Shown: positions 2,326-62,358 of the stretch, one piece after another | Layout of the letters: every line of letters starts with the position of its first letter | Numbering within the stretch: the first letter of the stretch is position 1 | DNA from: an uncultured Alphaproteobacteria bacterium | GTDB taxonomy: Bacteria; Pseudomonadota; Alphaproteobacteria; Rs-D84 | Direction of reading: 5' to 3' | Assembly (NCBI GenBank): GCA_905233975.1 | Contig: CAJOGD010000001.1 | Coordinates: 86,263-150,262, forward strand | DNA length: 64,000 bases | Notes under the pieces: model-generated | Told to the model about the DNA's origin: nothing | What the model saw: the letters and a program-made list of their open reading frames with translations, nothing else | Databases searched by the model: none | Made by a program: the position numbers and the translations under genes

Positions 2326-3204
2326 ATGACAACTTATATTTTGATTGCAATGTGCGCGGTTATCATCATCATGCTGGGCGCGCTGCTTATGCGGCCGGCG
2401 AAAACGGACATGTCCGCATTACACGAAGACAACGCACGCCTGCGCGAACGCCTTGCGGAACGGCTTGGCGCATTGTCGCAAAATGCGATTGAACTTAAAA
2501 ACATCAGTTCGGACATCGCGAATTTCAAAAATATCCTTATGGGCAACAAACAGGCGCGCGGCACATTCGGCGAACGACAATTAGAGGATTTAATCACCGA
2601 CATTATGCCACCGGAAACATATGCTTTTCAAAGTGTGCTAAACACCGGCGTTCGACCGGATTGCATAATCCGCCTGCCTTATCCGCCGGGCGACATGATT
2701 ATCGACAGCAAATTTCCATTGGAATCGTATAACCACATGTGCGGCGACGACAACCCGGAAATGTATCGCAAGCAATTCGAATTGGACGTCCGCAAACACA
2801 TCGACGCAATCGCCGAAAAATACATAATCCCCGGCCAAACCGCAGAGGTCGCAATGATGTTCATCGCGTCCGAATCTATATTCGAAACGTTGCACCGCGA
2901 ATTTCCGGGCACAGTCGAATACGCCGCACGCAAGAAAGTATTTATCGTTTCTCCGGCGACGCTTTGGGCAACACTTAACACGATTCGCGCGGTGCTATCG
3001 GATATAAAAATCAAACGCGTCGCGGGCCAAATTAAACGCGAACTTGACATGTTGCTGACGGACCTTTCACGACTTGCAGACCGCGCAGCCCGGGTACAAA
3101 GTCACTTTGCGATGACACAGACGGATTTGGAACAACTGCAAACATCAATCGGCAAAATCACCCCCCGCGCAGAAAAGATAAAAGAATTGGATTTTGAGAA
3201 ATAG
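2326..3204 (+). CDS. rmuC: DNA recombination protein RmuC
   Basis: 292 aa with an N-terminal TM segment and a coiled-coil (AELKNISSDIANF), consistent with RmuC family architecture. Confidence 0.7.
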   Translation: MTTYILIAMCAVIIIMLGALLMRPAKTDMSALHEDNARLRERLAERLGALSQNAIELKNISSDIANFKNILMGNKQARGTFGERQLEDLITDIMPPETYAFQSVLNTGVRPDCIIRLPYPPGDMIIDSKFPLESYNHMCGDDNPEMYRKQFELDVRKHIDAIAEKYIIPGQTAEVAMMFIASESIFETLHREFPGTVEYAARKKVFIVSPATLWATLNTIRAVLSDIKIKRVAGQIKRELDMLLTDLSRLADRAARVQSHFAMTQTDLEQLQTSIGKITPRAEKIKELDFEK

Positions 3205-3207
3205 AGG

Positions 3208-3302
3208 ATAGTGTTAGTGCAAGTGGTTAGTGTAAGTGCGGGCGCGTTGCGCCCGTTTGTGTTCCCGACCCACTAACCACTAATCACTAACACTTACACT
3301 AA
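3208..3302. repeat. MITE-like palindromic repeat, copy R1. Arms built from AGTGTTAGTG / CACTAACACT units around a GC hairpin CGGGCGCGTTGCGCCCG.
   Basis: Left arm tagtgttagtgcaagtggttagtgtaagtg (3208-3238) is the reverse complement of right arm cactaaccactaatcactaacacttacact (3271-3300). Same family recurs at 4768, 22507, 51768 and 62321. Confidence 0.8.
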
Positions 3303-4366
3303 TTCTGATTCTGTGGGATATAGACGTTTTCGTTATATGTTGTTTCTGTCCAATCTTCTTCAAGCGGTGTGGCCAGTAGGTATATTACGATTACAGGTGT
3401 GCCTGCTGCGTATTGTGCGGCAAGATATTGTTTCCAATCTTCAACACTTGTGCAATCGTTGTATTTAAAAGAAAAAACACCGGATGTAGTACCTGTTGCA
3501 TAAGTTTGTTTTACGCTTCCGTCTGGCATATTAGCATTTGACGCGTCAGACCCAACGAAAAGATTTGACAACGCTGGTTTCGGCGGGTTACAAGACAACA
3601 CGTCGGCAAAACTAGCATAAAATACATTGTAATTGTTAATTTTTGTCCAGTTTTCCGTTCCATCAAGTACTTTTACACCAACGCGTCTTGTGATTTTGTG
3701 TGTGGTGGCGTCGAAAGAATCGGCATAGTCACCGACTTTGCGTAATACCATATCGCCCTGGCGATAGAAAACGGGATAAATCGGATTCGTTGGCGTTGGT
3801 GTGCCGTTTTGGGTGGCGGTACCAGTTGCCGAAACGTATTCTGTATTGTTATGTATCGTATAAAGCCAACAAAGTCCGGACACCGGATCGCGGTTTTCGG
3901 AACAAACGAATTCACTATCAAGTCCGTTTTTAAGTGCCGCATTAAATGTTTTTGCGTCGATTAAATTATCAGATTGTTCCGCATACGCGCCGGTTGCTTG
4001 GTAAATTCCCTTTTGTCCGATTTGTCCGGCCGTTCCGGTATATGTGACCGCGGTGTGATCGTTAAACGGGTCTATGTCGTCCTGTTTTTGGTTTAGTTTT
4101 GTATTTACACCACCAACCATGGGCAGTGATGTGTCGGTAGTACTGGTTCCCAAATCAGATTTGACTGCGCGTTTCTGCACCGTTCCGGCCGCGTTTGTGT
4201 ATTCCATGGCTTTGTTTTGTTCCGCGTCGAATTTGTTTTGTCGCGTATCAAGTTCATGTTCGACATATTTCAATGACGTTGCGGTTTTGCGGTCCGCCGC
4301 TTCTTCGGCAAACGCCGGCAACACCGCCGCCAACAATCCGAACATCAAAAACTTTTTCAACTGCAT
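3299..4366 (-). CDS. secreted protein, paralog family A copy 1. Sec signal peptide; Thr/Gly/Asn-rich with a variable C-terminal half.
   Basis: N-terminus MQLKKFLMFGLLAAVLPAFA-EEA is a signal peptide. About 85-90 percent identical over the first ~160 aa to ORF 37882..38988. AGGAGA SD sits 8 nt upstream. Confidence 0.7.
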   Translation of the reverse strand: MQLKKFLMFGLLAAVLPAFAEEAADRKTATSLKYVEHELDTRQNKFDAEQNKAMEYTNAAGTVQKRAVKSDLGTSTTDTSLPMVGGVNTKLNQKQDDIDPFNDHTAVTYTGTAGQIGQKGIYQATGAYAEQSDNLIDAKTFNAALKNGLDSEFVCSENRDPVSGLCWLYTIHNNTEYVSATGTATQNGTPTPTNPIYPVFYRQGDMVLRKVGDYADSFDATTHKITRRVGVKVLDGTENWTKINNYNVFYASFADVLSCNPPKPALSNLFVGSDASNANMPDGSVKQTYATGTTSGVFSFKYNDCTSVEDWKQYLAAQYAAGTPVIVIYLLATPLEEDWTETTYNENVYIPQNQN

Positions 4367-53243: not shown

Positions 53244-54141
53244 TTTTCTCCTTTAACCAAACAAAGAAATTATCATCTATTTTTGTTTCTAACTTTGCAA
53301 ATTTTATTGTTTCGCGAACATCGGCGGGCAATCTGACCCAATCTTTTTCGGTCGTCACAAGTTTCGCCTTTTTGCGTTTTGCGCTTTCAATTAGATACGC
53401 AATATCATTTTCATTATATTGATAATGGTCGCCGAAACTGCGCCGCGCAACGACACCGGAAAGCGAATTAAAAAACTTTTTCGGATACCCAATACCGGCA
53501 AAGGCAAACAACTTTTCACCGCGCGGATACGGCGACACAGTATGATTTTCCGCGTAAAAGACGGGTATTCCGACCGGCAACACAAATTTTTTATGCGGCT
53601 TTTTATTTTTTATAACGATAATCGCATCGGCTTTCTTTACATGACTTTTTGGCACCCGCAACGGCCCCGACGGAATCAGAAAACCATTCCCAAACCCCAA
53701 ACCTTGGTCAAAAACCAAAATAGAAATATTCTTGGCAATAGATGGATTTTGCAAACCGTCGTCCATAACAATCGGGCCATTGTCGTTTTTTTGCCGGTCC
53801 AACAACATTATATTGCTTTTTCTGTGTCCGACATGCACCGCGATACCATCAGACATCAACATTGCCGCCTCGTCCCCAATATTGTCTGTGTATGTCGTCC
53901 GCTTATATCCGCGCATAACAACCGGCGCGTCAAGATAATTTGCAATTATGCGCACAATTGGCGTTTTACCAACCCCACCCGCAAAGATTCCGCCGACACA
54001 TATAATTTTCCGCCGCGATTTATACGCAAACATTTTGCGCCATAAAAACACAACGCGTCCCGCCAAGTAATAAACAAACGCAACCGGCAACAATAAAAAA
54101 CTAATCGGCGTTTTGTGTAAAAACCACCAAGGTGTCTTCAT
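53227..54141 (-). CDS. lpxK: tetraacyldisaccharide 4-prime-kinase
   Basis: P-loop GGIFAGGVGKTP; 304 aa. Confidence 0.8.
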   Translation of the reverse strand: MKTPWWFLHKTPISFLLLPVAFVYYLAGRVVFLWRKMFAYKSRRKIICVGGIFAGGVGKTPIVRIIANYLDAPVVMRGYKRTTYTDNIGDEAAMLMSDGIAVHVGHRKSNIMLLDRQKNDNGPIVMDDGLQNPSIAKNISILVFDQGLGFGNGFLIPSGPLRVPKSHVKKADAIIVIKNKKPHKKFVLPVGIPVFYAENHTVSPYPRGEKLFAFAGIGYPKKFFNSLSGVVARRSFGDHYQYNENDIAYLIESAKRKKAKLVTTEKDWVRLPADVRETIKFAKLETKIDDNFFVWLKEKIDENR

Positions 54142-55011: not shown

Positions 55012-55045
55012 CTTGACAATGTGTTATTTTGTATTATATTATAAC
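55012..55045 (+). promoter_or_regulatory. sigma70-like promoter (TTGACA-16-TATATT) for the large hypothetical gene
   Basis: cTTGACAatgtgttattttgtatTATATTat, with an AAAGGA SD before the ATG at 55068. Confidence 0.4.
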
Positions 55046-55067
55046 CAACAATAAAAGGATGTTGAAA

Positions 55068-56891
55068 ATGGATTTGAAAGAAATAGAACGAATGCTTGGA
55101 CTTCCGAACAAACCACAGCCTAGCCCGGTTGGGGTACCGCTCGTTGCACTGCCATATCTGGCTTTGGACGGATTAAAACTTGCAATCTTGGCCTGTTTAG
55201 AACCAACAACCGCATACAAAAAAGCCAAAACATACGAACAAAAGTTGGAAGAATTAGGCAAAATCTTACAAACACTGGCAAGTTCAAATATTGAAGACTC
55301 TTTGGCCAAAGGTTCCGAAGCGCAAATCCATGTAAATTTTGCTAAAAATGCCTCCGAAGAAATATGCACGCTAATACAAGAGGCAATAAATAAAGCAACG
55401 GGGCTGAATGACAAAAAATTGTTCACTTTTAAGGTTTTTAACACCCCAAACAGTCGCAAAGAAACGGCGGTATTTCAATCCCCAAAAGAAAACCTTCGGA
55501 CAACCATCGGCACCATGTTAGAGCGTTATTCGGGACGTTATTTCAAATTTTCCGGCGATTTAAATGCAGAAGACATTGTTTTCAAAAACACCGACAATTC
55601 TTGGATTTCAAACCTTACCGTAACCGGCACTTTTAAATGTGACAAGCATAATAAAATATTCCCCGCCAAGGTTGGAACTCTTGATTGCTATAATCTTCGC
55701 AAAAATTATATAACACCCGATACACAACTCCCCGAAGCAAAAGTCATCAATTGCGCATACAGCGTAACCGGTTTTGATGTACTTATGGATATATTACCCA
55801 GTGGATTAAGACACTTAATCGTTGAACCGGGCATGATACGACTTGAACCCAATCCGCAAAACCCGGATGCCCCAATCCGGAAACTGCGTTTAGCAACAGC
55901 ACGAGAATTCAGAAAGAAATATCCACGATTAAAGATTACTGACACAAACGGTAAAAATCTATCAGATATATTGAAAAGACTCGATAACGAAGGCAATCTT
56001 AAACCAATAAAAAAACCAAAAACGGCGCCAAAACCGCGCACCACACCAACAAACACATTGCCCAACCAAATAATAGGCCAACATTTGTCGGTCCCGGATT
56101 TAATAATGTTTTGTCGTACAATTCCGGACAAATACGGCAAAGATAAATTTCCAGAAAATAACGACCTAAAAGATCCGATTACAAGAGCTTTGTTGTCTGG
56201 CAAACTCAAAACAAAAAAATTCGTGATTGCCAGGGATGGCCATACAAAAATTCAGGTTATTGACATATCCGAATTTGAACTTTTCACAACTATCCTGGAT
56301 CAGGTAATTGTCGAAGACGAAAAGGCAAAAGCGATGAAACAGGTGGCGAAACAAACCGTCCACGTTGTCATGCCACAGAAACAACAAACCGTTCAACCGA
56401 CAAAAACCAACGAACAAAATCAAACAAAAATTGTAAAATATATACAACCAAGCGTATTCGACGAAATTGTGTCTGACGTAAATTACAAGTTTGCTATGCA
56501 AGTTTTGCACGATATTGAATCCGTAAACACCGACCCATCAGACCCCACAATAAAGAACAACACTTCTTTAAACTCAACCGCCCCAACCAAGATAACAAAA
56601 GCCGGCGGATGCTATATCAAACAAACCAACGGAAAAGAAAAAACCATTATATGGATTGTCGCACAGGACGAAAACGGGAACAAAATATTTGTGTGCCAAG
56701 GATTCTTTAAAAAGAACACTCGCCCAAAAAAATTTATACTTCAACAAGGTTCTCGAAAGTTGCAGACGTTCACAAAAGAAGAGTTAAACGACTATATTTC
56801 TGTCTCAAGTTTGATTGAGTTTGATAAGGCTCCAAAACCTGGACCTTTAATACAACAACATTTCGGAAGAAACCTGTACCAAAAATCATAA
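55068..56891 (+). CDS. large hypothetical protein (~607 aa) with a Lys/Pro-rich linker (KPIKKPKTAPKPRTTPTNTLP); candidate secreted effector
   Basis: Start set at MDLKEIERML behind the SD. No TM segment or signal peptide. No recognised domain. Confidence 0.55.
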   Translation: MDLKEIERMLGLPNKPQPSPVGVPLVALPYLALDGLKLAILACLEPTTAYKKAKTYEQKLEELGKILQTLASSNIEDSLAKGSEAQIHVNFAKNASEEICTLIQEAINKATGLNDKKLFTFKVFNTPNSRKETAVFQSPKENLRTTIGTMLERYSGRYFKFSGDLNAEDIVFKNTDNSWISNLTVTGTFKCDKHNKIFPAKVGTLDCYNLRKNYITPDTQLPEAKVINCAYSVTGFDVLMDILPSGLRHLIVEPGMIRLEPNPQNPDAPIRKLRLATAREFRKKYPRLKITDTNGKNLSDILKRLDNEGNLKPIKKPKTAPKPRTTPTNTLPNQIIGQHLSVPDLIMFCRTIPDKYGKDKFPENNDLKDPITRALLSGKLKTKKFVIARDGHTKIQVIDISEFELFTTILDQVIVEDEKAKAMKQVAKQTVHVVMPQKQQTVQPTKTNEQNQTKIVKYIQPSVFDEIVSDVNYKFAMQVLHDIESVNTDPSDPTIKNNTSLNSTAPTKITKAGGCYIKQTNGKEKTIIWIVAQDENGNKIFVCQGFFKKNTRPKKFILQQGSRKLQTFTKEELNDYISVSSLIEFDKAPKPGPLIQQHFGRNLYQKS

Positions 56892-56938: not shown

Positions 56939-57015
<77 letters not shown>

Positions 57016-57027
57016 GTTTAAATGAAA

Positions 57028-57053
57028 AATACACCGCAATGGTGTATTTTTTG
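57028..57053 (+). terminator. rho-independent terminator after tRNA-fMet
   Basis: AATACACC-GCAA-TGGTGTATT followed by TTTTT. Confidence 0.6.
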
Positions 57054-57196
57054 TTTAAATCTTGTTGTGGTCTGTGGTTTGTGACCCGCAACGCAGTTGC
57101 CGGTTCAAAATTTGTATATAAGAACGAACGATAGTGAAGTTCGAATAACTACAAATTTGCGCGCAGCCGGCACATAATGTGCCGCGCGAGCGAAAT

Positions 57197-57211
57197 CATC
57201 CCCCGCAACCA
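57197..57211 (+). repeat. direct repeat of the tRNA-fMet 3-prime end (CATCCCCCGCAACCA), copy 2
   Basis: Identical 15-mer to 57001..57015. Confidence 0.8.
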
Positions 57212-57330
57212 AAGTTTCAAAACTTGCCCTCTGGGGCAAGTTTTTATTTGTTTTACAATACATACATGAGGTTCGAAAGTTAACTTTTTGAAATAGGCAA
57301 ATTTTCGCCACTTTTTGAACTGTACAGAAT

Positions 57331-57984
57331 TTAGTATTTGTTATTATAATAACCATTTTTTAATGCATCTATACATATTTCTTGAGCTTCAGCAAGCTGT
57401 TTTGAAATTTTTGAATAACTTCTGGGATTATTCTTATCTCCCGTTATTTTTGCTATGTTTTTTCCTTGTTCATCTTGAATAATACAATCTGTAGTTCTAT
57501 AAATTTTTTGACATTCTTGTGAACCAGCATAATCATAAGTAAAGAACCCTGTCGTATAAGTATTAGACGATCCATATGCAGATGCATAATTACCATAACT
57601 ATATGCATTTGCAGTACCATAAGTATGACTTCCGGTTGGAACGTATCTAGTATTATAAATAGGACATTTTGTTGAATACGGATAGTTTGTTATTTTTATT
57701 ACTAAATTATAATTTTTTCCTGTTTTGTTACATATATCAACATCTTCTTTTGTATAATTTGAGCAAACATCCAGGTCAGATTTTAATTCTTTAACCTCTA
57801 AACTATTACCACCATCTACTTTGGACATATATATTTCTTCGCTATTTTGTTCAAGAATTAAGATAGTATCTTTATAATAAGTATTAGCAAAATTTATAGG
57901 TGTTTCTGTAGTATATTGTTCCATATGATAAGTACTAGTACACCCACACAAAAATAATAAAAACAAAGTAAATAATCTTTTCAT
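57331..57984 (-). CDS. lipoprotein, AT-rich, island cargo
   Basis: MKRLFTLFLLFLCGCTST lipobox. Tyr/Asn-rich. Confidence 0.5.
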   Translation of the reverse strand: MKRLFTLFLLFLCGCTSTYHMEQYTTETPINFANTYYKDTILILEQNSEEIYMSKVDGGNSLEVKELKSDLDVCSNYTKEDVDICNKTGKNYNLVIKITNYPYSTKCPIYNTRYVPTGSHTYGTANAYSYGNYASAYGSSNTYTTGFFTYDYAGSQECQKIYRTTDCIIQDEQGKNIAKITGDKNNPRSYSKISKQLAEAQEICIDALKNGYYNNKY

Positions 57985-58052
57985 ATGCTCACCATTTTTA
58001 ACATTATCATTATATCTCAAATGTATTATTTTTCAATATAATTAAGTTCTAC

Positions 58053-59159
58053 TTATGCATCTACTATATCTATAAGTTCTTGAAACTGATACATGGCAGC
58101 ACGTCGACCGGATGATTTTCTTCTTTCTTTTAAAATACCTGCTTTTATCAACTTTTCTAAAATATTTCTTGATGTAGCTCTATTTGGGATGCCACACTCA
58201 TGAATAAACTGCGTGGATGTAAAAATTGGTCTTTTAAACAAGGCGTCTAACGCACTCACTGAAAATCGAGATTTTGTTATTTCTTGAAATATTGATTTGT
58301 TTTCCTCATATAATTCCAAAATTTTTTTAGCTTTTTCGTAATTTTTGTGTGATTGTTCTTTTACAGCATTTAAAAAGAATAACACCCACGAATTCCAATC
58401 ATTTTTATTTTCTATATATTTAAATGCCTGTTCATATTCATCTCTATGCTTATTGAGATATTCGCTAAGATAAAAAACAGGTTTAATCAATATACTCTTT
58501 TGATATAAAAATAATGGTATTAACATCCGACCTAAACGTCCATTCCCATCATTAAAAGGATGTATCATCTCAAATTGTGCATGCAAAACAGCCAACTGAA
58601 CAAGTGGGGTATCTTCAGTACTATTTACATAATCCATCAAATCTGTCATACAAGGATTAACGGATTCCGGTACAGGTGGAATAAAAGTCATTTCTTCAAC
58701 CGGTCTTCCTGGTATTCCTATATAATTTTGGGTTATCCTAAATTCACCAGGATTCTTATCTTTTCCTCTTACATCTCTCATTAAAATTCCATGTAAAGAC
58801 CTAATCAATGATGCAGAAATTTTATGACCTTTGCTAACCGAGTTTTCTCCTATTATTAGGGCCATACGATAATTTAAAACTTCCTTTATATCATCCTTTT
58901 TGCGTTGAGACAAATCTGTATTTTCATCAGCATCATACTCTAATACGTCCGTTAACGTGGCTTGTGTACCTTCTATTTCAGAAGAAACGCGAGCTTCATT
59001 ACTTGTTAAAGGCGATAATAAAACATTCGGATTTGGTATAGCTAACAATAACCCATTGTAAGTAGCCAAACCCCTTTCAGCTAGTGCTAAATACGGTGCC
59101 AACAATTTCCAATCTAAATTGTTTATAGGTAATAAAGATGGACTATACGGAGATAACAT
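58053..59159 (-). CDS. fic: Fic/Doc family protein (AMPylation-type toxin/effector)
   Basis: Canonical Fic motif HPFNDGNGRLGRML. 368 aa with a C-terminal winged-helix-like tail. Confidence 0.85.
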   Translation of the reverse strand: MLSPYSPSLLPINNLDWKLLAPYLALAERGLATYNGLLLAIPNPNVLLSPLTSNEARVSSEIEGTQATLTDVLEYDADENTDLSQRKKDDIKEVLNYRMALIIGENSVSKGHKISASLIRSLHGILMRDVRGKDKNPGEFRITQNYIGIPGRPVEEMTFIPPVPESVNPCMTDLMDYVNSTEDTPLVQLAVLHAQFEMIHPFNDGNGRLGRMLIPLFLYQKSILIKPVFYLSEYLNKHRDEYEQAFKYIENKNDWNSWVLFFLNAVKEQSHKNYEKAKKILELYEENKSIFQEITKSRFSVSALDALFKRPIFTSTQFIHECGIPNRATSRNILEKLIKAGILKERRKSSGRRAAMYQFQELIDIVDA

Positions 59160-59169
59160 ACTTTACATA

Positions 59170-59295
59170 TTAAACACTTTTTGTGTAAAATCAAGTTAAA
59201 TTTATTTTACACAAACACTTTTGTGTAAAACCCAATATTATCAAACTATTTTGTGTAAAACATCGATTAATTTATTTTACACAAACACTTTTGTT
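59170..59295. promoter_or_regulatory. iterated palindromic operator upstream of fic: five copies of TTTTGTGTAAAA / TTTTACACAAA, including a perfect 26-bp palindrome
   Basis: aaacacTTTTGTGTAAAA, TTTTACACAAAcacTTTTGTGTAAAA, TTTTGTGTAAAA and TTTTACACAAAcacttttgt, all within 130 bp of the fic start codon. Confidence 0.5.
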
Positions 59296-59505
59296 TGCTT
59301 TTGAGCTATATTTTTGTAGTGTTATTGTTAAACCATCTAGGTAAAAATCAATAATTTGATTACGTTAGACTTCTTGCCCAGATGGGCATAAATTTATCAA
59401 TAAAAATGTTTAATATATATTCGGTAAACCTAATTTGTCTTTAAAAAGTCGTATTTCATGTCCAAATGCTATTAAATCCGTATAGTTATTGGCTCGAGAA
59501 CTGCA

Positions 59506-59520
59506 CATCCCCCGCAACCA
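59506..59520 (+). repeat. direct repeat of the tRNA-fMet 3-prime end, copy 3 (distal att-like end)
   Basis: CATCCCCCGCAACCA, identical to the tRNA end. Confidence 0.8.
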
Positions 59521-59540
59521 GTTAAATAATAAAAATAACC

Positions 59541-59570
59541 CCAAATGGGTTATTTTTATTATTTAATTTG
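59541..59570. terminator. bidirectional hairpin terminator (AACCCAAATGGGTT) flanked by T/A runs
   Basis: aataaccccaaatgggttatttttatt. Probably the ancestral terminator displaced by the island insertions. Confidence 0.5.
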
Positions 59571-59739
59571 TTCCGATGGTTGAATCACCGAAACAAGGTG
59601 GTTCACCACAAGCGAGAGCCAGACGGCAGTATGGCGGTCAACCGTCAAGGTTGACGAGCGCAGTTGCGGCGCGGTTTTTAACCGCGCCAAATCCCCCCCA
59701 GCTATAAAAAGTCGTGACTTTATAATCGTTTGTGATACA

Positions 59740-60138
59740 ATGACCACTATGAAAGCACTTACTTTATATCAACCTTATGCAACCGCGATAGCAATCGGGT
59801 TAAAAAAATACGAAACGCGGTCTTGGGCTACGAAATATCGTGGTCCACTGGCAATACATGCATCTTTAAAACCGTTATCGCCTGAATTAAAAGAACTAGC
59901 CAAACGTTATGGAATAAATAATCTTGAATATGGAAAAATAATAGCGATTTGTGAATTACAAGACTGTATTGAAATGACAGACGAAATTATAAAACACCAA
60001 TCAACCACAGAAAAAGATTTTGGTATCTGGACACCGGGTCGTTATGCATGGAAATTAAAAGTTTTAAAAATTTTAAATGAACCTTTTCCCGCCCGCGGGT
60101 ATCAAATGCTTTGGAATATTGATTTAGATAATAAATAA
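59740..60138 (+). CDS. ASCH (PUA-like) domain protein
   Basis: 132 aa; N-terminus MKALTLYQPYATAI fits the ASCH pattern. Confidence 0.5.
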   Translation: MTTMKALTLYQPYATAIAIGLKKYETRSWATKYRGPLAIHASLKPLSPELKELAKRYGINNLEYGKIIAICELQDCIEMTDEIIKHQSTTEKDFGIWTPGRYAWKLKVLKILNEPFPARGYQMLWNIDLDNK

Positions 60139-61500: not shown

Positions 61501-62316
61501 CTAATCAACTTTTTTTAACATTTTCGCATTGCGGCCGGTTATCACCTTTTTCCCTGTTTCTTTTTCCAACTGCAGTTTTGCCGCACGTGCGACACCGCCA
61601 CCACGTGATGCTACACACATAGTTTCGCGGAAGCCTTTTGGGTTTTCCTTTTTTGATATTTCTGTTGCCGATAATTCCGCCAACATATTCAAAACCAATT
61701 CCGCATTTGTCATATTGTCGCGCAAAGACTCTTTTTTTAACCCTTTTATTTTTTTATAATCACGCGTATTCATTCCGGACCATGCACGTGTTATTTCATC
61801 GGTAAGCAACGCATATTCTAATCCTTGTTTTATTCCGCCGCGGTCCCATTCGTTGGTTAAATCCTTTCGAATTTCAATAGATTTTAACCGTTGCGCAATC
61901 CATTCGTTGGAATAGCCCATACGTTGATAATACCGCAGTGCGCGTTGAATCGCGATTTCCGGATCGGCGATTTCATCAATTCTTTCAGACCCCACACTTG
62001 CCAACCATATTTTGAAAGGTTCGGCCTTTTTTGATGGCACAGATTGAATAAGCCGCAAAATTTGTTCAGTATCCGCAACATCGGTATTGTAAAATTTACC
62101 ATCAGACGATTGCATTTTCAGTTGTCCGATTTTTTCGGACAACTCACTTCCTTCTTGGTGCAACTTTATTTTTAAGTCATTCCAATACTTTCGTGGACGT
62201 TCCGTACCTGTCAACGCCGCTATAACATCGACAATTGAAAAATACCATTTTTCTTTGGATTCGTCCCAATGTGTCCTGATTTTTTTATCTTCAAATAATT
62301 TTAAAGCCGTTTCCAT
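61501..62316 (-). CDS. Bro-N / DinD-RhuM-like domain protein
   Basis: N-terminal KKIRTHWDESKEKWYFSIVDVIAALTG resembles Bro-N/KilA-N. Start trimmed to METALKLF. Confidence 0.4.
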   Translation of the reverse strand: METALKLFEDKKIRTHWDESKEKWYFSIVDVIAALTGTERPRKYWNDLKIKLHQEGSELSEKIGQLKMQSSDGKFYNTDVADTEQILRLIQSVPSKKAEPFKIWLASVGSERIDEIADPEIAIQRALRYYQRMGYSNEWIAQRLKSIEIRKDLTNEWDRGGIKQGLEYALLTDEITRAWSGMNTRDYKKIKGLKKESLRDNMTNAELVLNMLAELSATEISKKENPKGFRETMCVASRGGGVARAAKLQLEKETGKKVITGRNAKMLKKVD

Positions 62317-62320
62317 AATA

Positions 62321-62358
62321 CACTTTCCACTAACCACTTACACTAAACACTAATTATT
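62321..62358. repeat. MITE-like repeat, solo half-copy R5 (cactttccactaaccacttacactaaacactaatta)
   Basis: A single arm of the CACTAA-unit repeat, lying between the Bro-N gene start and the ychF stop. Confidence 0.7.

Follow-up and report, generated by a model that had tools for sequence, protein, structure and literature searches.

The fic gene of the window (that is, the whole stretch of DNA analysed, 64,000 nucleotides in length) is preceded by five exact copies of the half-site TTTTACACAAA, all of them within 106 bp (59180-59285). These half-sites exist, they are non-random and they are conserved. The Fic protein, as modelled by AF2, has the SoFic fold with a winged helix-turn-helix (wHTH). 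By analogy with characterised relatives and by comparison of upstream sequences, we consider it probable that the array serves as operator for the fic promoter, with Fic itself as its reader, as a form of negative autoregulation. Most likely, the fic locus is a well-built example of the known self-repressing toxin or defence genes; autorepression by a Fic protein with a wHTH is already known from CccR, and promoter binding from SoFic. Such an arrangement would explain how a potentially toxic fic gene can stand alone in a small, horizontally acquired islet: it brings its own inhibitory helix and, in all likelihood, also an operator and the repressor function that acts on it.

The Fic protein and its islet

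The fic gene (58053-59159, minus strand) encodes a SoFic-type class II Fic protein of 368 aa. The active-site motif HxFx(D/E)GNGRxxR is present as H200-PFNDGNGRLGR-211, and its positions are invariant in a 47-sequence alignment. The inhibitory motif (S/T)xxxE(G/N) precedes the Fic motif in the same polypeptide, as S59-S-E-I-E63-G64, in which S59, E63 and G64 are invariant or nearly so in the same alignment; an inhibitory helix in this position defines class II according to PMC9755527. Pfam domains Fic (1.3e-19) and Fic_N (2e-23) were both detected. The SoFic model of PADLOC, where SoFic is a single-gene defence candidate, matches at 1.4e-109 and aligns residues 3-366 with positions 7-358 of its 361. 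In a PDB search, the best sequence matches among solved structures, at about 1e-33, are to the SoFic chains of S. oneidensis. The score for the NCBIfam equivalog NF046030 is 168 against a cutoff of 550, so we regard the window Fic as a member of the SoFic family and not as an orthologue.

The AF2 model of Fic has a pLDDT of 92.6 and reaches Foldseek TM scores of 0.84-0.86 over about 370 columns to the SoFic structures 3zcn, 3zec and 3eqx. A long N-terminal helix (H17-40) is predicted in this single-chain model. The C-terminal wHTH (58056-58274, minus strand) was delimited with the AF2 model and DSSP, and it superposes on the SoFic C-terminal domain. In the model, residues 296-368 have a pLDDT of at least 90 and the topology a1-b1-a2-a3-b2-b3, with the DSSP elements H300-309, E312-314, H315-322 and H327-339 followed by the wing strands E344-347 and E356-358. 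The predicted recognition helix is R327-K339 (58143-58181). The match of the Pfam family SoFic-like_C to Fic is sub-threshold (19.3 vs 27 bits).

The fic gene shares with a lipoprotein gene an islet of 28% GC, which adjoins the initiator tRNA-Met gene. The right-hand boundary of the islet is a direct repeat of the tRNA-Met 3' end (59507-59522, plus strand; CATCCCCCGCAACCAG), with partner copies at 57001-57016 (the tRNA itself) and 57199-57213. Between the tRNA 3'-end repeats the GC content falls to about 28%, and the homology to L003, a diverged copy of the islet, stops at the right-hand repeat. No integrase or excisionase gene is present in the islet (57214-59506), as judged by the ORF list and Pfam. 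The window comes from an uncultured Alphaproteobacterium of low GC; the YchF matches that bear a name are from Alphaproteobacteria MAGs.

The preliminary description had seen neither an antitoxin nor a regulator gene adjacent to fic and had named the 229-aa lipoprotein gene as its sole neighbour inside the islet, and both statements were borne out, the former by the ORF list and by family searches. No small antitoxin ORF flanks fic: downstream there is a gap of 32 nt and then the lipoprotein gene, and the upstream side has just the decayed remnant of an ORF. The adjacent small antitoxin gene that marks class I Fic toxin-antitoxin pairs is thus absent from the locus. Because the inhibitory helix of a class II protein is internal, the missing antitoxin gene requires no special explanation.

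The lipoprotein gene (57331-58020, minus strand) starts 32 nt downstream of fic and is probably co-transcribed with it. Its product has no match in Pfam, NCBIfam or PADLOC. A homologue exists in L003 (80%), and the gene is absent from four other fic loci that we compared (L100, L026, L128 and L131), so it lies outside the conserved module; with no family match either, the lipoprotein was rejected as a partner or regulator of Fic. A 44-codon ORF (59410-59544, minus strand) was likewise considered as a small regulator and rejected, as its start is missing in L003 and it resembles the 3' remnant of a lost gene.

The half-site array and its conservation

The promoter-proximal half-site S1 (59180-59190, minus strand) is an exact TTTTACACAAA when read on the strand of fic, and 20 nt separate its end from the ATG. 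S2 (59205-59215, plus strand), also exact, reads TTTGTGTAAAA on the fic strand and is inverted with respect to both S1, across 14 nt (N14), and S3, across 4 nt (N4). S3 (59220-59230, minus strand) is exact, pairs with S2 as an 11+4+11 palindrome of 26 bp and lies 40 bp from S1. The remaining exact copies, S4 (59250-59260, minus strand) and S5 (59275-59285, plus strand), belong to a distal duplicated unit, in which they are the counterparts of S1 and S2. Two decayed half-sites, each with 6 of 11 matches, complete the array. S6' (59290-59300, minus strand; AAGCAAACAAA) is found N4 upstream of S5, in the duplication register, as the counterpart of S3, and TTTGATAATAT (59235-59245, minus strand) is found N4 after S4 and is kept in L003 and in L100, a second diverged copy of the islet. 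Read on the fic strand, the order is S6'-N4-S5(<-)-N14-S4(->)-N4-TTTGATAATAT, followed by S3(->)-N4-S2(<-)-N14-S1(->) and, after 20 nt, the ATG. The orientation therefore alternates on this strand (-> N4 <- N14 ->), with a period of 40 bp.

The array contains a tandem duplication of 70 bp (59179-59224 and 59249-59294; 87% identity), which doubles the putative operator unit and is also present in L003 and L100. Each copy of the duplication bears one of the two decayed half-sites. The duplication represents one unit present twice, and the five sites therefore do not count as independent.

The iterated half-sites that the preliminary description had reported in front of fic are confirmed by a pattern search, with five exact copies of TTTTACACAAA in 59180-59285 against an expectation of 0.26 for the whole 64 kb. 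Its perfect 26-bp palindrome (59205-59230) stands in part: the two 11-nt arms are perfect, but the 4-nt centre, CACT, lacks self-complementarity. The spacing of 30-40 bp given there needs correction, because the centre-to-centre distances from S1 to S5 are 25, 15, 30 and 25 bp, and 40 bp is the distance between same-orientation neighbours in a unit.

In total, the 64-kb window contains 6 exact copies of TTTTACACAAA against a mean expectation of 0.26 from dinucleotide shuffles, and none of 100 shuffles reaches 6 (the maximum is 2). Copies with one mismatch occur outside the array at chance level in the window. With exact counts far above the shuffles and one-mismatch copies at chance, TTTTACACAAA is not a general AT-rich intergenic word of the window, and the suspicion that the motif is AT-rich low-complexity sequence found throughout the intergenic regions fails here. 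The sixth exact copy, at 54112, is a single half-site with no partner in the first codons of a minus-strand gene, and we treated it as chance. No second paired TTTTACACAAA site is found elsewhere in the 64-kb window.

A putative proximal promoter, P1 (59167-59194, minus strand), consists of TTGATT (59194-59189), a 16-nt spacer and TAATAT (59172-59167), and is a weak match to the consensus made by eye. S1 sits in its spacer and overlaps the -35 hexamer by two bases, and both hexamers are unchanged in L003 and L100. With the putative -10 box ending 7 nt ahead of the fic ATG and no Shine-Dalgarno sequence, the fic mRNA may be leaderless. A promoter scan picks a different pair, TTTACA-18-TAAAGT (59189-59160), which overlaps S1 too. 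Moreover, the decayed TTTGATAATAT contains a possible extended -10 box, TGaTAATAT (59243-59235), with S4 upstream and S3 and S2 just downstream, and the hexamer of this putative distal promoter is invariant in L003 and L100. On the basis of this sequence, it is possible that the duplicated unit carries a distal promoter, P2.

L003 and L100 are the sole diverged copies of the islet among the matches listed; the metagenome matches listed are otherwise at 30-47% identity. The Fic protein of L003 is 97% identical and its locus has a different left flank, while L100, from a sheep-rumen Alphaproteobacteria MAG, has a Fic of 97.6% identity and DNA of about 88%. All five half-sites are kept in both. 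Among the window, L003 and L100, 2 of 55 half-site columns are variable, compared with 15 of 51 spacer columns (Fisher p=3.4e-4). The spacer lengths in the array are identical across the three loci. For example, the spacer between S5 and S4 carries many substitutions in L003 and L100, yet it is 14 nt long in all of them. S1 and S2 are invariant. A single transition is seen in S4 of L003 and another in S5 of L100. They affect the same position of the half-site and both lead to the variant TTTTACATAAA, so they are not compensatory. A scan of species genomes for TTTTACACAAA-N(2-32)-TTTGTGTAAAA yielded at least 119 matches, most of which are due to chance in AT-rich genomes as the allowed gap was too wide, and among the matches listed only L100 and L026 are relevant.

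Arrays of distant homologues and characterised relatives

More distant fic loci, whose Fic proteins belong to the same sub-clade and whose genomic contexts are unrelated, carry the same layout. L026, from a different proteobacterial MAG (Fic 46% identity), contains the exact TTTTACACAAA-N4-TTTGTGTAAAA in an alternating array of 11 sites over 210 bp, with palindrome centres spaced 41, 30 and 41 bp. In L128, which is GC-richer and has a Fic of 44-45% identity, the arrangement is CAATACACAAA-N4-TTTGCGTATTG-N14-CGATACGCAA, and a fourth copy adjoins the ATG. L131 (41% identity) has a symmetric array, (-> N4 <-) N14 (-> N4 <-). The window Fic shares with those of L026 and L005 (53%) a one-residue insertion variant, IxN(R/K)xT, at the start of the recognition helix, and these three also have ACACAAA-type words. 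The sole gene common to the compared loci is fic, so the simplest candidate for the reader of the sites is the wHTH of Fic itself.

For the wider family, we collected 117 non-redundant 160-nt upstream regions of Fic homologues from metagenomes and IMG/VR, among the matches listed, and took as controls 149 upstream regions of other genes from the same loci. An inverted repeat was counted when the best repeat of a region beat 95% of its dinucleotide shuffles, and an alternating triple when three 9-mers each had at least 8 of 9 matches. Significant inverted repeats are found in 60 of 117 Fic regions vs 14 of 149 controls. Alternating triples are found in 37% of the Fic regions (43 of 117) vs 4% of the controls (6 of 149) and 2 of 351 shuffles. 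The periods of these triples, measured as the same-orientation distance, peak at 40-41 bp (29 loci), 51-52 bp (10 loci) and 30-31 bp (7 loci), or about four, five and three helical turns.

The half-site words differ in most of the triple-bearing loci, so these loci do not represent copies of a single ancestor. A k-mer enrichment over 67 upstream regions gave no ACACAAA-type motif common to all of them, and half-sites that are lineage-specific make a universal host factor unlikely. The classes of half-site words track the classes of winged-helix sequence, a relation that is confounded by shared descent and that we do not count as a test. These upstream sequences suggest a rule for the family: in about a third to a half of the SoFic-like genes there is an alternating array of half-sites, with lineage-specific words and a phasing of 3, 4 or 5 helical turns. 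We found no description in the literature of a helically phased alternating array across the family. If confirmed, this architecture would provide an operator prediction for hundreds of family members.

Among characterised proteins, SoFic (SO_4266, mloA) is the best structural and profile match to the window Fic. Dimeric SoFic of S. oneidensis co-elutes with its own 300-bp upstream DNA, which a monomeric mutant does not; of three 100-bp sub-fragments, the best co-elution is with the one adjoining the start codon, and there is none with a composition-matched random fragment (bioRxiv 10.64898/2026.07.09.737422). In the published promoter sequence we located ATGTCGAT at 151 (+, degenerate), 162 (-), 192 (+), 231 (+), 242 (-) and 271 (+). 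The best-bound fragment, F1, contains the triple 231(+)/242(-)/271(+), arranged as -> N3 <- N21 -> with a 40-bp period, which is the same alternating 40-bp-period architecture as in the window. If the prediction is confirmed, the copies of ATGTCGAT at 231, 242 and 271 of the published fragment would be the exact candidate sites of SoFic, whose binding is mapped to a fragment and not to defined sites. SoFic differs from the window Fic in its half-site word, and the two proteins have 22-24% identity in the structural alignment. EcSofic differs in having a 47-aa downstream antitoxin, AS1, whereas the lipoprotein gene follows the window fic after 32 nt and leaves no room for a small ORF.

A precedent for the regulation comes from Yersinia pseudotuberculosis, whose class II Fic toxin CccR (YPK_0951) carries an HTH at its C-terminus and acts as the repressor of its own promoter (PMC9755527). 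Its C-terminal half shifts a promoter probe, and the DNase I footprint covers AGATAATCAT-N26-ATGATAATCT, inverted 10-mers around the -35 and -10 boxes; when these repeats are mutated, binding is lost and reporter expression goes up (PMC9755527). CccR is dimeric, dimerisation is required, and the separation of its DNA-binding helices is reported as 70 A (PMC9755527). The window Fic is also of class II, with an N-terminal inhibitory helix, a C-terminal wHTH and inverted 11-bp half-sites near putative -35 and -10 boxes, and its AF2 model matches the CccR structure 7xux over the full length, as do the sequences. The geometry of the CccR operator is different: it has two 10-bp arms separated by N26, whereas the window has 5-7 alternating half-sites of 11 bp, spaced by N4 and N14 with a period of 40 bp. 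CccR is also more distant from the window Fic than SoFic is (phmmer 9e-13, TM about 0.6), and it is a T6SS effector that targets FtsZ, whereas nothing at the window Fic suggests secretion.

Type II toxin-antitoxin systems offer a further comparison. Phd/Doc has palindromic operators over the -35 and -10 boxes with cooperative repression from multiple sites, and Doc has the Fido fold. There, a separate antitoxin binds DNA and the toxin:antitoxin ratio tunes repression; the window Fic, unlike Phd/Doc, has no antitoxin gene, and its inhibitory helix and predicted DNA-binding domain are both in the toxin.

Proposed autorepression and competing explanations

The preliminary description had seen in the array the architecture of an operator for a cooperative dimeric repressor, and had named two candidates for that repressor: the product of a gene elsewhere, or Fic itself through its C-terminal wHTH. 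The second candidate is well supported by analogy and by the comparative evidence. We infer the mechanism, including the binding of Fic to the half-sites, the pair that is spanned by a dimer, the promoter positions and the sign of the regulation. By analogy with SoFic and CccR, Fic, as a SoFic-type class II AMP-transferase, would dimerise through its N-terminal helix and present one wHTH per subunit, each of which would read one TTTTACACAAA half-site. Same-orientation sites are 40 bp apart, or about four helical turns, so several dimers could occupy the same side of the double helix in a cooperative manner. S1 lies in the putative proximal promoter and S4 in what may be a duplicated distal one. 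Occupied sites would exclude RNA polymerase, and the array would thereby keep a defence enzyme that is potentially toxic at a low, self-limited level. The N14 pair (25 bp from centre to centre, about 85 A) would be nearer to the 70 A of CccR, which correspond to about 21 bp of straight DNA; the N4 pair is a compact palindrome that recurs as a repeated unit in L131 and L026. Two points count against this reading: the spacers are N4 and N14, where CccR, the one footprinted case, has N26, and a dimer has two wHTHs, compared with three half-sites per unit.

An extension of autorepression, to which we give a low probability, is that SoFic-type enzymes, rather than occupying their promoters as single dimers, form a helically phased chain on alternating arrays (about 31, 41 or 52 bp), and that this nucleoprotein both represses the gene and stores the enzyme in a non-toxic form until a trigger such as phage infection. 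A dimer would span N14, and the winged helices of neighbouring dimers would touch across N4, which, as a speculation, would explain both conserved spacings and the odd site numbers. If confirmed, the rule of phased arrays across the family would hint that higher-order DNA assembly helps to silence a candidate anti-phage enzyme.

Several other explanations of the array have to be weighed against autorepression. The array might be a docking or allosteric site more than a switch of transcription, in which phased half-sites drive or stabilise dimers or oligomers of Fic and so set the balance of AMPylation and deAMPylation, and release from DNA activates the toxin or defence activity. This function, which could coexist with autorepression, appears unlikely as the explanation, although it has some precedents: SoFic AMPylation varies with the oligomeric state (bioRxiv 10.64898/2026.07.09.737422), and in the available part of the report on CbFic2 of Coxiella burnetii, binding of dsDNA via the HTH induces dimerisation and changes the activity (PMC10628234). 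CbFic2 also combines Fic with a C-terminal wHTH, and its structure, 8cil, aligns with the window AF2 model from end to end. Moreover, the arrays are larger than repression of one promoter requires, as in L026 with its 11 sites over 210 bp and in S. oneidensis with two arrays over about 230 bp. However, in the same part of that report CbFic2 is assayed on generic dsDNA, defined by its length and its GC content, DNA is presented as a switch of the activity towards histone H3, and no operator is described (PMC10628234), while the window sites are sequence-specific and lie on the putative promoter. [quoted passage not shown] The sites might instead be the operator of a repressor whose gene lies at another place in the host or in a related mobile element. 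The islet has no regulator gene, our inspection of the genome covered 64 kb, and the scan of species genomes gave mostly chance matches. We nevertheless consider a repressor acting in trans distinctly improbable, because fic homologues in differing organisms and flanks (L003, L100, L026 and L128) come with the same word and spacing, because fic is the one gene that these loci have in common, and because the half-site class shifts with the winged-helix class of Fic across the family; the lack of a second paired site in the window points the same way.

The remaining two explanations assign the repeats to other processes than control of the promoter by a repressor. That they are arm-type sites of a recombinase or excisionase, or other maintenance sites of the tRNA-Met islet, would fit the direct repeats of the tRNA 3' end that bound the islet, with the array 220-340 bp from the right-hand one, and in the accessible part of PMC11963761 wHTH recombination directionality factors oligomerise on phased repeats. 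This is very improbable, since the islet is devoid of integrase and excisionase genes over 57214-59506, the same architecture occurs at L026, with no tRNA in the locus, and upstream of SoFic in S. oneidensis, and the sites abut the fic start codon and not an att core. To RNA hairpins in a 5' leader, acting in attenuation or stability, we assign next to no probability. The fic-strand RNA of 59157-59300 does fold into two 12-bp hairpins (z=-2.68 vs shuffles), but such a fold follows automatically from any inverted repeat. Rfam gave no match in e-value mode over 59380-59780 and none at the gathering threshold near the array, the likely proximal promoter leaves almost no leader, and the two arm changes to TTTTACATAAA do not compensate each other. 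Across the family the arms can be 33-45 nt apart and flank the -35 and -10 boxes, and the triples show a phasing by multiples of about 10.3 bp, which is a property of double-stranded DNA.

Alternating arrays at other fic genes

In the 300-bp SoFic promoter fragment of S. oneidensis (sequence taken from Table S2 of bioRxiv 10.64898/2026.07.09.737422), two distinct alternating arrays, each built from its own word, are found at positions 44-115 and 151-280, and the period is 40 bp in both. In fragment positions, the distal array is composed of the word GTATAGA at 46+, 64-, 86+ and 104-, and the second one of the word ATGTCGAT at 151+ (degenerate), 162-, 192+, 231+, 242- and 271+. The distal array lies mostly within F3 and extends into F2 with its 104- copy, F1 being the 100-bp sub-fragment nearest the start codon. 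Co-elution of SoFic was reported to be weaker with F2 and with F3 than with F1 (bioRxiv 10.64898/2026.07.09.737422).

Before a Fic homologue with 46% identity (locus L026), 11 alternating copies of a TTTTACACAAA-type word, the same type as in the window array, occupy about 210 bp (3100-3330, minus strand), with palindrome centres spaced by 41, 30 and 41 bp. This number of sites is far above what one promoter would be expected to need, and the Shine-Dalgarno sequence of the gene is normal.

No upstream repeats were found at some homologues of the same sub-clade, from the IMG/VR loci L205 and L207, which start only a few bases from the end of the upstream gene. In L205, the C-terminus of the upstream product (..ALISAVVTGKIDV..) presumably resembles a type I restriction specificity subunit. 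Copies of fic that are embedded in operons seem to have no operator of their own.

The islet at the initiator tRNA-Met gene

The islet containing fic and the lipoprotein gene has a GC content of 28% and adjoins the initiator tRNA-Met gene (56939-57015). The 3' end of this tRNA gene, CATCCCCCGCAACCA, recurs at 57199-57213 and 59507-59522, and these repeats delimit a remnant of about 200 bp and the 2.3-kb islet, arranged in tandem; no integrase gene was found in this region (56939-59522). In L100, a diverged islet copy from a sheep-rumen Alphaproteobacteria MAG, fic and its operator are located at the same tRNA, additional tRNA-end repeats are present and the lipoprotein gene is absent. The arrangement looks like a tandem accretion of cis-mobilisable remnants.

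At the islet edge, a 44-codon ORF (59410-59544, minus strand), for which no family was found, crosses the tRNA-end repeat with its 5' part, where L003, another diverged copy, has a stop codon. Its 3' part (..DLIAFGHEI(R/Q)LFKDK(L/I)GL..) is kept in L003 and L100, and many of its changes are of synonymous type. The ORF is probably what is left of the 3' end of an islet gene that has been lost.

Hairpins beside the islet, and two possibly acquired genes

A GC-rich stretch (59556-59712, plus strand) separates the islet from the ASCH gene and has no matching Rfam family. Its predicted fold consists of three strong hairpins, with -55.8 kcal/mol and z=-4.69 vs shuffles, the third and final being GGCGCGGTTTTTAACCGCGCC; the stretch may encode a small RNA that has not been annotated, or several terminators. 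Further acquired DNA may be marked by two other genes, one (55029-56891, plus strand) immediately before the tRNA-Met gene, whose 620-aa product matches no family of Pfam or NCBIfam, and the other (61501-62337, minus strand) between murF and ychF, encoding a protein with the phage-associated Bro-N domain.
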